This document shows, in pieces, positions 31,843-36,354 of a stretch of DNA of 64,000 nucleotides. The translations under genes and the position numbers were made by a program. Positions within the stretch are counted from its first letter, which is position 1; every line of letters starts with the position of its first letter. The DNA is taken from NCBI GenBank assembly GCA_026026165.1, contig JAPEUD010000019.1, forward strand, positions 186,001 to 250,000, given 5' to 3'. Source of the stretch: Sarea resinae. Lineage: Eukaryota. The notes beneath the pieces were generated by a model. That model was not told where the DNA came from, did not search any database, and worked only from the letters and a program-made list of their open reading frames with translations.

Positions 31843-32714
31843 CTATGATGTGGTTTCAGCGCTATTCTTCCTGAACGAAACCTTTTCCACCCCAACCGTC
31901 TCGACTCCGTTGGCGTCGGTCCGCAATTGGTATACGTAAAGCACGAGTACATCCCCTTGGACCTGTGTTGAGCGGTAGGTGTGTCAGCAGCAGCACCGGC
32001 AGCGCGAGCCCCTGAAGAAGCCGTATCGACAGAGGGCACGGGAAAGGGAGATCGAAAGAGGCAAACTCACGTCCATCAGACAAAAGCTCGGCACGGGCTC
32101 CTCGCCCTCGCCCCACCAAGCCGTACTCACAGCCCCCGTCGCACTGCCCGGGTTCACGAAGAACTTGCCCTCCAACTCGTAAGCCTCGAAGCGATGGGTA
32201 CCACCCCACAGCAGGACATCGACATCCATCTGGCGAGCGGCAATCAGCAAGCTATCGGCATCGCCCGGCGGCACGATCGTGTGGCCATGCGTGAAGCCGA
32301 TGCGTAGCGTGCCGTGCGTGACCACCTTCGAGAGCGCGAGGTTGGGCGCGTCGACGTCGTAGTCGCCCTTGGTGATCTGGAGGTCGGGCGCGATCGTGCG
32401 CAGGTAGTCGTACGTCTCTTTCGACGTCAGGTTGCCCAGACATAGGATTTGGCCGATTTTCCCAGGCGTCAGGAGTTTCTTGAATTTCGTGGGGATGTCC
32501 TGGGGTTTGGGGGATCGCTGGGTTAGCTTGCTGTGCGATTTTCTTCGTTCGCCGTGATTGTCTGTCTCACGGGCTGGCTGGTTGGTCCACCAGCTGGCGG
32601 ATTGGGTCTGTGGGATCATGATAGAGGCAAGAAGCGGGGAACAATGGCTCGACTTACAGGTGCCCTGTCGGGGATGAAGAGGTCCCCTAGCACCAGGACC
32701 AATCTCGAAGACAT
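31843..32714 (-). CDS. VPS29: Retromer subunit Vps29 (201 aa)
   Basis: Exons 32714-32658, 32499-32071, 31962-31843. MSSRLVLVLGDLFIPDRAPDIPTKFKKLL...ILCLGNL...GGTHRFEAYE...NPGSATGA...PSFCLMDVQG. Confidence 0.96.
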
Positions 32715-33588
32715 GGCGGTTCAGGAGCCACAGTCTTCGATGCCGATTCTGCTGCTGGTGCTCACGCAGTTGATGCTCGGGGCGCAAGTATTATGGGAAG
32801 TCGGTCTAGGGGTTGTGGTTGTGGTTGTGATTATTGCGACTGGCGCGCCTACATCTCATGCATTGGCTACTACTGACACCGACTGATTGACTGACTGACG
32901 TTGGTGATGGACTGCGATGGATGGACTGGGATGGGTCGGATCTTGCCGAGCGAGCTGTACTATTATGTATGCAGACTGACAATAGCAGTTGGGGGGATGA
33001 CACTATGGGAGTATTACAATCAACCAGTCTACTACGAACTCGATAGATGAGGCTGAAGCCGTTCGATTCACTGTGAAGCTCAATCAATTTGAAGCGATAC
33101 TGGTGTTGTTGATATCATGCGCGCAGCCTGAGCATGCCCTCTGGAGGAGCGTGCCGGATTCCGCCAGTGACGCTACGGAGTACTGACTTGTGCGACTTTT
33201 GCCGTGGACACGAATTACGCTTAGGTAAAAAGTAAAAGAAGAGGCAAGAGTCATACGGCGGTTCACGAAAAGCCATCAATTGAGGGCGGTGACTGGACGG
33301 GGTGCAGTGATCATGCTTGGCTGGTAGAGGAAAACTTTTCAATCCGTCATCACCACTTCTTATAAACATCACGGTGTCCTGACCTCACTAGCCCTCCACT
33401 CCATTCCACTGTCATCGTCCATTGTCGTCATCTCCTCCCCTCTCCTCCCCTCCTCTCCTCTCCCCTCCTCTCTCGGACAAGCCTGTGCCTGTCCGCCTCG
33501 GCCAATCACCCTCCCCCGAGATATCCCGCCCCACCACCTGGCCCCTCCCCCCTCCCCCCACCTCCGCTACCCCGCCACTACCACCGCC

Positions 33589-33786
33589 CTGGCTCCTCCA
33601 CGGGCACAGTCCAGATTAAGTCTCATCTCGAGACATCTGGACAGACGACCCGTGCTTGAGCTACACACTCCTTTCACCACCGAAAGAGACGCATCGCCCG
33701 AAGACGACATCGATCCAACTGTCCCTGCCGCCACTCCCTCAAACCGTCAGCAACAGATCAGCACCACCGCCGAGAAGATAGGCAAT
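33589..33786 (+). CDS. Predicted CUG-initiated N-terminal extension of AGX1 carrying a PTS2 nonapeptide
   Basis: In frame with the AUG, with no stop back to 33328. accgccCTGg context at 33589. Encodes APPRAQS-RLSLISRHL (33613-33639). No AUG seen in any frame between the TATA box and 33787. Confidence 0.6.
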
Positions 33787-35161
33787 ATGTCGTCAGATCA
33801 AGCGTCCAATCAGGCAGCGCATCCCGCGCTTCTCATCCCCGGCCCGATTGAGTTCGATGATGCCGTTCTACAGGCCATGGGCCATTTCAGGTCCGTACAC
33901 GTCTAGTCAAGCCCCATTACTTGCCCATTACTGACTGTGTCCAGTGAGAGCCATGTCGGCGCGCCCTTCGTCAGCGTCTTCGGCGAGACGCTCACCATGC
34001 TCCGCAAGCTCTTTCAGACTTCGAATCCTGCATCGCAACCCTTTGTCATCTCTGGCTCCGGTACTCTAGGCTGGGATCTGGTGGCGGCGAATCTGGCAGA
34101 ACCCGGCGACGACGTCTTGGTGCTGCATACCGGGTATTTCGCCGATTCGTTCTCCGACTGCTTCGAGACCTACGGCGCCAAAGCTACTCAGCTCAAAGCG
34201 CCAATTGGCGACCGTCCCCAGCTTCCAGAGATAGAGAAGGCCTTGAAGGAGAAGAAGTATAAGATTGTCACCGTCACGCACGTCGATACCTCCACTGGTG
34301 TCCTGAGCGAGCTCGCCGCCTTGTCCGATCTAGTGCATCGAGTATCTCCCGAGACGTTGGTTGTGGTGGACGGCGTATGCAGCGTCGGCTGCGAAGAGAT
34401 CCGGTTCGACGACTGGGGTCTCGACGTGGTCCTGACCGCCAGCCAAAAGGCCATTGGGTGTCCAGCCGGTCTGAGCATCCTGATGGCCTCCGGCCGCGCG
34501 ATCGAGACGTTCAAAGCCCGCAAGACGCCACCGGGCTCCTACTTTGCTTCGTTCAAGAACTGGCTCCCTAGTAAGTTCTAGTATACACCGTTATCTTCAT
34601 TACCTTCTAACCGTGCGATTCACAGTCATGCAAAACTACGAAGCCAAGAAAGCATCTTACTTTGCGACTCCCTCTCCCCAACTCGTCCGCGCCCTCCACA
34701 CGACCCTCACCCAGATCCTCTCCAAGCCGCTCTCGGACCGCTTCGCCGCCCACCGCGCCGCATCGCAGAAAATCAAAGCCACGGTCTCGGAGCTGGGCCT
34801 CCACCAACTGGCTGACAAGCCGGAGAACCAAGCCAACGGCATGACGGCCATCTACCTGCCCGAAGGCGTCAAGGCGGCCGATATCCTGCCGAATCTGCTG
34901 AAGAAGGGTGTCATTTTCGCTGGCGGGCTACACAAGGAGATTGCCGCCAAGTATGTACGGTTTGGACATATGGGTGTCAGTGTGGTGAGTTACCTTTTCT
35001 ACCTTTATCTTCTTCCAACTTTTACGAACCGTCCCCACTTTTTCATCTCATCCTGTGCGCTAACTTTGATGTTCCAGACGGACCCAAAGAGAGATGATAT
35101 CGACCGTGCGCTCAACGCACTTAAGACTGGATTGGCCGAGGCTGGTTACTCAAAAGCGTGA
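33787..35161 (+). CDS. AGX1: Alanine-glyoxylate / serine-pyruvate aminotransferase (class V PLP enzyme), 390 aa from the AUG
   Basis: Exons 33787-33890, 33945-34570, 34626-34984, 35078-35161. Motifs LLIPGPIE, GSGTLGWD, THVDTSTGV, VDGVCS, TASQKAIG (PLP lysine), RFGHMG. TATAAA at 33361. Confidence 0.95.
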
Positions 35162-35685
35162 TTGATCATAGATAAAAAAAAGGGTCTCGTTGGATTTCTT
35201 CTCTGCAAGCCTAGAATATAAAATTCAAAACTCAAAACCATGGAACAAGAATACGCATCTGACTGAGTGATTATGTCTTCTCAATCTCCATTCTTTTAAA
35301 TTCTTTTCTTAAGACGCTTTCGTTGGACTCAATCTACTAGCTGATCAACGTTGACATCTCCCTTTCAGCTCATACCATTTCACGTTGGTTGGAACTTGGA
35401 TATAATCATAGCAACTCATTCATTCACTTACTCATTTAGAAGCTCATTCATTCACTGGTCAAGGAAAGAAAATGTGGACCTTGGCAATATCAACAAGTTC
35501 TCATCTTCGATCAACATTTATCTCGATAGAGAGATTTTTAGGCAAGGAGCCGACCGAAAATAAAATGGGAAAAGCAAAATAAAGCAAAATAAAACTTGAA
35601 CCAAGAGAACGGCATCCTCCAACTTCTCAGCCCAGGGACAAGAAACAAACCCGTCAGCTCATCAAAACCATCATCATCATCATCT

Positions 35686-36072
35686 CTACCTCGCCTTCCC
35701 CTGACCCAGCACCTGCGGATAATGATATATCTTCGACGCTCCTGCCGCCGCCACCACCACCTCATCGCCGCCTACCACACCGCCCATATAACCCAGCCCC
35801 CCCAACCCAGCCAGGCGAACCACACCGCCCGGCACATCGGCCCGCCGCGTGCCCGAGACGCGGATCCCCGTCCCCGCCCCCTCCTCGGCCCGATCGATCG
35901 CGCACTCGGCACAGCATCCCTCGTGCGCGGCGGCGCGCCGGAGCACCTCGACCTCGGCGCCGTCGACGCAGCGTTTCGTGCGTGAGTCGATGCCGTGCGT
36001 GCAGGGGGCTAGGATCGCGGTGCGCTTGACGTGCGCGCAGAGGCGGTAGGTTAGGCGCTGGATTTGACACAT
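35686..36072 (-). CDS. Small 'MC' Cys/His putative zinc-binding protein, copy D, with Gly/Val-rich tail (128 aa)
   Basis: MCQIQRLTYRLCAH-x9-C-x10-C-x18-CAEC. Start context caaccATG; TATAAAA (-) at 36270-36276. Confidence 0.75.
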   Translation of the reverse strand: MCQIQRLTYRLCAHVKRTAILAPCTHGIDSRTKRCVDGAEVEVLRRAAAHEGCCAECAIDRAEEGAGTGIRVSGTRRADVPGGVVRLAGLGGLGYMGGVVGGDEVVVAAAGASKIYHYPQVLGQGKAR

Positions 36073-36354
36073 GGTTGTTTTGTTGGTTTGTCAGGCGGAG
36101 GGAGGTGGGGTTGCTGGATTGGATGATGGTTGGTGGGGCTGTTGGATTGGAGTCGGTGTTTGTACTTTCAAAAAAAAAAAGTCCGAAGGCGCAGAAGATG
36201 CTTGATTGATGCTTGGGTATTGGTCGTGATGGGTTTTCTGGATCTAGCATGGCGCTCACGAGGGGGGGGTTTTATATCCCCCCTCTGTCCCTGTCGTCGC
36301 CATTTCTCGAAGACGGTGCGAGAGCCATCTGAGAACAGCATTAGATCAGCAGTG

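Follow-up and report, generated by a model that had tools for sequence, protein, structure and literature searches.

The AGT Locus of Sarea resinae

The stretch of DNA considered here (the window) comprises 64,000 nucleotides of the Sarea resinae assembly GCA_026026165.1 (contig JAPEUD010000019.1, positions 186,001 to 250,000 of the forward strand), and positions are counted from its first letter. It carries a gene for an alanine-glyoxylate aminotransferase (AGT), upstream of which an open frame without any ATG appears to encode a peroxisomal targeting signal type 2 (PTS2) that would be translated from a CUG codon. The gene occupies 33787–35161 on the + strand, and all its features described below lie on that strand too. 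It consists of four exons (33787–33890, 33945–34570, 34626–34984 and 35078–35161) separated by introns of 54, 55 and 93 nt, and translation of the spliced model reproduces exactly the 390-aa protein P0097 (NCBI, Sarea resinae metagenome-assembled genome). The main ATG at 33787–33789 (ggcaatATGt, A at −3) is the start of this annotated protein, and exon 4 ends in a TGA stop at 35159–35161. The last intron (34985–35077) is confirmed by a metatranscriptome contig (run X2, record 8) that joins 34983 to 35077 (GT..AG, cut +1), in keeping with these limits, and the 3′ end of the RNA reaches at least 35203.

The encoded protein matches the Aminotran_5 domain (PF00266) with 82.1 bits, compared with a Pfam cut-off of 21.5, and among solved structures yeast AGX1 comes closest (2bkw, E 2.2e-92), with other AGT/SPT chains next. 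The predicted product is a class-V aminotransferase of the AGT/Agx1 type. Its C-terminus reads ..AGYSKA, and the final SKA does not conform to a canonical type-1 peroxisomal targeting signal (PTS1) of the form (S/A/C)(K/R/H)(L/M), in which M is an alternative last residue. The same holds for homologues, in that a canonical PTS1 was found at the C-terminus of 0/88 full-length homologues, which end in YKA (16), KGL (15), QKA (7), KGQ (6) and other tripeptides. It is for this reason that the PTS2, rather than a C-terminal tripeptide, is taken to be the conserved signal. The PTS1 consensus is quoted as S/C/A-K/R/H-L in the available part of PMC3338719.

Upstream of the main ATG, the AGT frame remains open for 153 codons, back to 33328, where it is closed by a TAG at 33325–33327; the next in-frame ATG (33313) is separated from the AGT frame by this stop. 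There is no ATG in any frame over the 473 nt from 33314 to 33786. This stretch is the presumed scanned 5′ leader and takes in everything after a TATAAA at 33361–33366, a possible TATA box, as judged from its sequence only, which CTG 33538 follows at a distance of 172 nt and CTG 33589 at 223 nt. The latter codon (33589–33591, accgccCTGg), with G at both −3 and +4, is the proposed non-AUG start of the PTS2 isoform and is referred to as start-2. From here, a 66-codon N-terminal extension (33589–33786) runs in frame into AGT, is homologous to the N-termini of AUG-initiated orthologues, and begins L-APPRAQS-RLSLISRHL. An in-frame CTG-GCC at 33538–33540 (caccacCTGg, C at −3) is probably the counterpart of a further, outer codon of relatives, referred to as start-1.

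The nonapeptide RLSLISRHL (33610–33636) begins seven codons after CTG 33589, and is thus at residue 8 when counted from that codon and at residue 25 when counted from CTG 33538. It fits both the classical PTS2 consensus, (R/K)(L/V/I)x5(Q/H)(L/A), and the extended one, R-(L/V/I/Q)-x-x-(L/V/I/H)-(L/S/G/A)-x-(H/Q)-(L/A), in the forms quoted in the available part of PMC4585086. It is followed directly by a second block, DRRPVLELHTPFTTER (33637–33684), where relatives read D.RP.LELNTPFSTER and the window ..LELHTPFTTER... This block is conserved as strongly as the PTS2, with N43, T44, P45, E49 and R50 nearly invariant in an alignment of relatives (A1), and no Pfam match was found for it. An earlier note on this DNA, made without database searches, had drawn attention to the open frame from 33328, the lack of an AUG after the TATAAA, the strong context of CUG 33589, the second in-frame CUG at 33538, the PTS2 consensus in RLSLISRHL, and a C-terminus without a canonical PTS1; the sequence bears out each of these observations.

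Within the window alone, each of these features is moderately unlikely to arise by chance (~4–5%), which is no more than suggestive. In 20,000 shuffles of 33328–33786, the probability was 0.052 for the absence of ATG, 0.037 for an open frame, and 0.039 for a strict PTS2 in that frame. Chance is ruled out because of the comparison with other species. A C/T-rich tract spans the leader and the beginning of the extension (33420–33590), with a GC skew of about −0.6 and a GC content of up to 0.74. It contains few stops in all three frames, and its coding frame gives a Pro/Ser/Leu-rich sequence; the open frame in that stretch alone is therefore weak evidence.

Conservation of the PTS2-Bearing Extension

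A search of longer proteins for homologues, with the translation of 33538–33888 as the query, gave 182 matches at E ≤ 1e-3, and 120 of these were listed. Most of the matches listed cover 80–97% of the query, so that the extension is included. A strict PTS2 occurs upstream of the PGP motif in 106 among the 120 matches listed, and its commonest form there is RLSLISRHL, as in the window. The other 14 comprise ten with F or I as the last residue of the motif, two in which the motif is cut by the gene model, one without the motif, and the window's own short model. Many homologue models start M-x(3-12)-RLSLISRHL, and the AUG-initiated orthologues have their PTS2 at residues 4–14. Moreover, several NCBI models flagged as "partial" begin without Met just upstream of the PTS2, and the named ones point to Aspergillus ibericus, A. 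fijiensis, Penicillium citrinum and Lachnellula as candidates for AUG-less species. Named homologues with a PTS2 belong to the Dothideo-, Eurotio-, Sordario-, Leotio- and Lecanoromycetes. On this comparison, the predicted PTS2-bearing N-terminus is an old, conserved part of AGT in Pezizomycotina.

The DNA of relatives was compared as well. Short open reading frame-type matches, aligned in A1, were used to retrieve 80 metagenome loci, and the PTS2 lies in one uninterrupted frame with the main ATG in 78 of them by script and in the other two by eye. The 78 loci parsed by script, together with the window, yield the 65 unique sequences to which the counts below refer: that of the window and 64 from metagenome loci. 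Conservation of the frame and of the RL-x5-HL motif across Pezizomycotina, which the earlier note had proposed as a check, is thus found both among the proteins listed and in the DNA.

Conservation of the peptide extends to lineages that have no AUG with which to translate it. In 36/65 sequences, including the window, the frame is devoid of ATG from the PTS2 back to the first stop upstream of it (in one of the 36, back to a contig edge). All 36 nevertheless retain the PTS2 residues: R or K at position 1, followed by the characteristic L, R and H in 36/36 each, and L or F at the end. In contrast to the residues, the codons vary, with seven different codons at position 1 and all six Leu codons at both position 2 and position 9. 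Since residues are kept while codons change, selection acts on the peptide, rather than on a nucleotide motif, where no AUG exists.

The Start Codon Column

An alignment of the upstream peptides by MAFFT lined up start-2 in only 47/65 rows and left start-1 scattered. Because the start codons were not lined up in this way, the sequences were anchored on the PTS2 instead. In the anchored set, the position of CTG 33589 is occupied by CTG in 37 sequences, by ATG in 20 and by GTG in eight, and never by another codon. It is located 4–11 codons before the PTS2 and is usually followed by GCN. The choice of this CTG in the earlier note is therefore upheld by a column that contains nothing except CTG, GTG or ATG in 65 sequences. 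On a rough 56-row tree, this column takes at least ten switches among the three codons. For comparison, the invariant Leu at position 2 of the PTS2 is written as TTA (4), CTT (13), CTC (17), TTG (11), CTG (13) and CTA (6), and in these regions CTG has a share of 0.196 among other Leu codons and GTG a share of 0.162 among Val codons.

The context of the column also differs with the codon. The 45 CTG or GTG codons have a purine at −3 in 45/45 cases and G at +4 in 44/45. In contrast, the 20 ATG codons show A (10), G (7) or C (3) at −3 and G (9), T (8), A (2) or C (1) at +4. The strict context of the former fits near-cognate codons that have to initiate, while the relaxed context of the latter fits AUGs that have to leak. 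According to the available part of PMC5487733, what is decisive for near-cognate starts in Pezizomycotina is A at −3 and G at +4.

Depletion of ATG Between Start-2 and the Main ATG

A leader that is to be scanned past a weak start should be free of competing AUGs, and such a depletion is observed. Between start-2 and the main ATG, 55/65 sequences lack an ATG in any frame, and 15 ATGs were observed in total, five of them out of frame, versus 119.5 expected. None of the equal-sized control pieces from exon 2 was ATG-free (0/56), and these held 201 ATGs versus 169 expected. The depletion continues over the 150 nt upstream of start-2, with 24 ATGs observed versus 81.9 expected. The main ATG itself lies 12 codons before PGP in 49/65 sequences and has A at −3 in 53/65. 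In 7/65 sequences, the main ATG was placed by the script at a Met that precedes PGP by two codons; this misplacement can only inflate the ATG count, and some of the 15 are in fact the true main ATG. Leaky scanning, which the earlier note had put forward, gains support from both this ATG-depleted leader (15 vs 119.5) and the context of start-2.

Proposed Translation of Two Isoforms

The explanation proposed for these data, and considered probable, is leaky scanning that yields a minor CUG-initiated isoform with a PTS2 and a major AUG-initiated isoform from one gene. The mRNA would start upstream of 33589 and carry an AUG-free leader. Most scanning ribosomes would pass to AUG 33787 and produce the annotated 390-aa enzyme, and a minority would initiate at CUG 33589, with its purine at −3 and G at +4, to give a protein 66 residues longer. 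The N-terminus of the latter, (M)APPRAQS-RLSLISRHL.., would offer its PTS2 to Pex7, and part of the enzyme would consequently be imported into peroxisomes, where the glyoxylate cycle supplies its substrate. The short isoform is assumed to be cytosolic.

A number of points weigh against this explanation. The aligned sequences are related, so raw counts overstate their independence, and the number of switches among ATG, CTG and GTG indicates an order of magnitude only, as the tree was a quick one made from roughly cut pieces. Two loci depart from the pattern. In L058, the PTS2 is perfect, yet the 13 codons ahead of it include neither ATG nor CTG nor GTG; the nearest CTG is at −16 in a poor context, and in-frame ATGs are at −62 and −97. 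In L076, the CTG-GCT start is kept and position 1 of the PTS2 has H in place of R. With respect to RNA, no contigs were found over 33000–34243 (runs X2, X1 and X3; five runs listed, one of them RNA, with a word share of 0.17), and those that were found cover 34244–35203 only and are silent on the 5′ end. The transcript could start downstream of 33589, and pyrimidine-rich tracts such as that at 33420–33590 often lie just upstream of transcription starts in filamentous fungi. Finally, AGT1 of Magnaporthe oryzae, modelled as a 385-aa protein from the main AUG, is reported to be peroxisomal, and its residues 340–385 direct eGFP to peroxisomal dots, a targeting ascribed to the C-terminal QKA in the available part of the report (Bhadauria et al. 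2012, PMC3338719). If a QKA fragment can do so, the ..SKA of the window might act as a weak PTS1, and the PTS2 may not be the only route.

A Possible Outer Start

A second start-like codon is found 12–29 codons upstream of start-2 in 46/65 sequences (CTG 31, ATG 14, GTG 1), and no qualifying start-1 was found in the other 19/65. The peptide between start-1 and start-2 contains 2–5 R or K and no D or E in 46/46 cases. Where start-1 is an ATG, it is mostly flanked by C at −3 and T at +4, and the favourable context of the CTGs (31/31) is partly circular, as a purine at −3 and G at +4 were part of the selection of start-1. An unbiased count is provided by the Leu codons of this region: Leu before Ala is CTG in 37/54 cases, versus 8/134 for other Leu (Fisher p 2e-18, from sequences that are not independent). 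Upstream of start-2, the window also has ..LRYPATTTA.. where relatives show the motif R.(Y/F)P(S/A), and CTG 33538 was lined up by eye with two relatives, L001 and L008 ([L]AP...YPAT...[L]AP). CTG 33538 is thus probably the counterpart of a separate conserved start further upstream, rather than a mere alternative to 33589. The window peptide that follows it, APPPSPHLRYPATTTA (33538–33588), has one Arg and no D or E. Given the single Arg and the C at −3, the outer start looks weakened in the Sarea lineage.

Mitochondrial presequences are Arg-rich and poor in acidic residues, as described in the available part of PMC4585086. The predicted start-1 peptides of relatives match this composition, which hints at a third isoform of mitochondrial type there. 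It is conceivable, albeit only as a tentative proposal, that AGT of Pezizomycotina is a three-in-one gene, with an outer start for a mitochondrial isoform, a middle start for a peroxisomal isoform with a PTS2, and the main AUG for a cytosolic isoform, the two upstream starts being nested, conserved, and often CUG or GUG.

Alternative Explanations

The outer codons bear directly on the reading of start-2, since the extension may instead be translated from further upstream (CTG 33538 or another near-cognate codon), with the PTS2 about 25 residues in and behind a presequence-like leader. The longest isoform may then go to mitochondria, not peroxisomes. The frequency of start-1 (46/65), its acid-free, R/K-bearing peptide (46/46), the CTG bias in Leu-Ala and the motif R.(Y/F)P(S/A) common to the window speak for translation from such a codon. 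However, CTG 33538 is a poor start, with its C at −3, and APPPSPHLRYPATTTA with its one Arg a poor presequence; 19/65 sequences lack a qualifying start-1, and the context figure for start-1 is partly circular. This explanation is unlikely for the window, and a further-upstream start can, in any case, coexist with initiation at 33589. Quite unlikely, too, is that the extension is a relic, in which the Sarea lineage lost an upstream AUG, the region turned into leader or promoter sequence that is no longer translated, and the 390-aa protein is the sole product. The lack of an AUG, the start of database model P0097 at 33787, the equally short models of 76/120 nearest homologues, and RNA contigs that do not reach the region are all compatible with such a loss. 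Yet the window keeps a 153-codon frame, a perfect nonapeptide, the downstream ..LELHTPFTTER.., the CTG in a good context and zero ATGs, and the 36/65 sequences that are likewise AUG-less keep their PTS2 residues through synonymous changes, unlike decaying sequence. The peptide-level selection in these AUG-less lineages counts against the relic and also against a regulatory element.

The latter would hold that the conservation is that of a DNA or RNA element in the promoter or leader, rather than of a translated peptide. While the region is pyrimidine-rich and located between TATAAA and the AUG, its amino acids are kept as codons change (six Leu and six Arg codons occur in the nonapeptide), and the frame is kept in 78/80 loci. 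As this is the pattern of selection at the protein level, not the nucleotide level, a regulatory element is highly improbable. There is very little probability, moreover, of an AUG-bearing exon further upstream that would be joined to the extension by splicing, with an alternative or longer transcript giving an AUG-initiated PTS2 isoform. A scan for an in-frame ATG, a GT donor and an AG acceptor gave 61 formal combinations, one of which has a consensus donor, a CTRAY-like branch point and a YAG (ATG 32921, donor 32967, acceptor before 33392), and database models of some relatives (P0015, P0030 and P0183) invent such exons. The 61 combinations were set aside as unsupported, the one with consensus signals requiring an implausible intron of 425 nt, which is 4–8 times longer than the three introns of the gene and would remove the TATAAA region. 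Nothing supports such an exon; many AUG-less loci have an in-frame stop only 2–12 codons before the upstream CTG, and in P0015 and P0030 the exons that the models invent take away part of the conserved nonapeptide. Furthermore, an upstream exon leaves unexplained a column of ATG, CTG and GTG only with start-type context.

Comparison With Known Systems

The precedent to which the earlier note had referred, a non-AUG-initiated PTS2 isoform of fungal 6-phosphogluconate dehydrogenase, is real: a cryptic PTS2 of this enzyme is reached via non-AUG initiation, according to the available part of Kremp et al. 2020 (PMC7214817). There, as in AGT, the PTS2 lies in an annotated 5′ untranslated region (UTR), in frame with a metabolic enzyme and conserved among fungi, and near-cognate initiation gives dual localisation from one mRNA, which for AGT is proposed. 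The start of 6-phosphogluconate dehydrogenase in Ustilago maydis is AGG AUU, as shown by experiment in that paper, whereas AGT has a CUG/GUG/AUG column across Pezizomycotina whose support is purely comparative. The words "aminotransferase" and "glyoxylate" have no occurrences (0 each) in PMC7214817. Full-text searches, with supplements excluded, turned up no paper in which fungal AGT is given a PTS2 or a non-AUG start. The predicted PTS2 extension of AGT is a well-supported candidate for a new case of the mechanism demonstrated for fungal 6-phosphogluconate dehydrogenase.

Mammalian AGT uses alternative start sites. Its targeting to mitochondria or peroxisomes is variable (Danpure, as cited in the available parts of PMC3798809 and PMC4585086), and it is of the same family as the enzyme described here, with a localisation that depends on the N-terminal signal it includes. 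In mammals, however, peroxisomal targeting relies on a C-terminal variant of PTS1, and it is to mitochondria that the N-terminal extension leads. In Sarea, by contrast, it is the N-terminal extension that carries the PTS2, and it has no AUG. AGT1 of M. oryzae is an orthologous Pezizomycotina enzyme that is reported to be peroxisomal; it differs in that its C-terminal QKA is regarded as the signal, and the available part of PMC3338719 contains no discussion of a PTS2 in this enzyme.

A comparable use of near-cognate codons is known from cpc-1 of Neurospora crassa, which has a near-cognate-initiated N-terminal extension (Ivanov et al. 2017, PMC5487733). As far as the available part of that paper goes, what cpc-1 shares with AGT is that near-cognate codons are conserved in Pezizomycotina, with A at −3 and G at +4, that purifying selection acts on the extension, and that database annotations leave the start unresolved. 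Unlike AGT, cpc-1 encodes a transcription factor, has upstream open reading frames and no organelle signal, and is supported by in vitro translation and ribosome profiling.

Gene Models of Relatives and Neighbouring Features

Of the short protein's 120 nearest homologues, 76 have models that begin at the inner AUG and 44 are longer, with a PTS2-like motif in 31 of the 44. Some models place their start within the extension or add invented exons to it by splicing (P0015, P0030, P0183, P0182, P0210 and P0211), and some of these cut the PTS2, for example to ..G-LSLISRHL. Such odd models look like artefacts of gene finders that are forced to find an AUG.

Upstream of AGT, a divergent neighbour at 31984–32790 on the − strand has a calcineurin-like phosphoesterase domain (PF12850, E 4e-13) and presumably resembles Vps29; the intergenic region common to the two genes extends from about 32800 to 33330. 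Downstream of AGT, long overlapping open frames lie on both strands at 35583–36270, where the GC content is up to 0.77.

Implications

The column restricted to CTG, GTG and ATG, next to leucines written with all six codons, makes a simple comparative test that is usable genome-wide for hidden isoforms. A systematic annotation error also comes to light, in that 76/120 nearest homologues, the window's model included, start at the inner AUG. If the proposed isoform is real, it would explain the peroxisomal route of a glyoxylate-cycle-linked enzyme in filamentous ascomycetes that lacks a canonical PTS1. It would also be a second example, unusually clean and spanning the subphylum, in which an "untranslated" leader conceals a targeting signal whose reading begins at a non-AUG codon. 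Should the gene encode three isoforms, their proportions would be set by the efficiency of near-cognate starts, and hence by the start-codon stringency of the cell.

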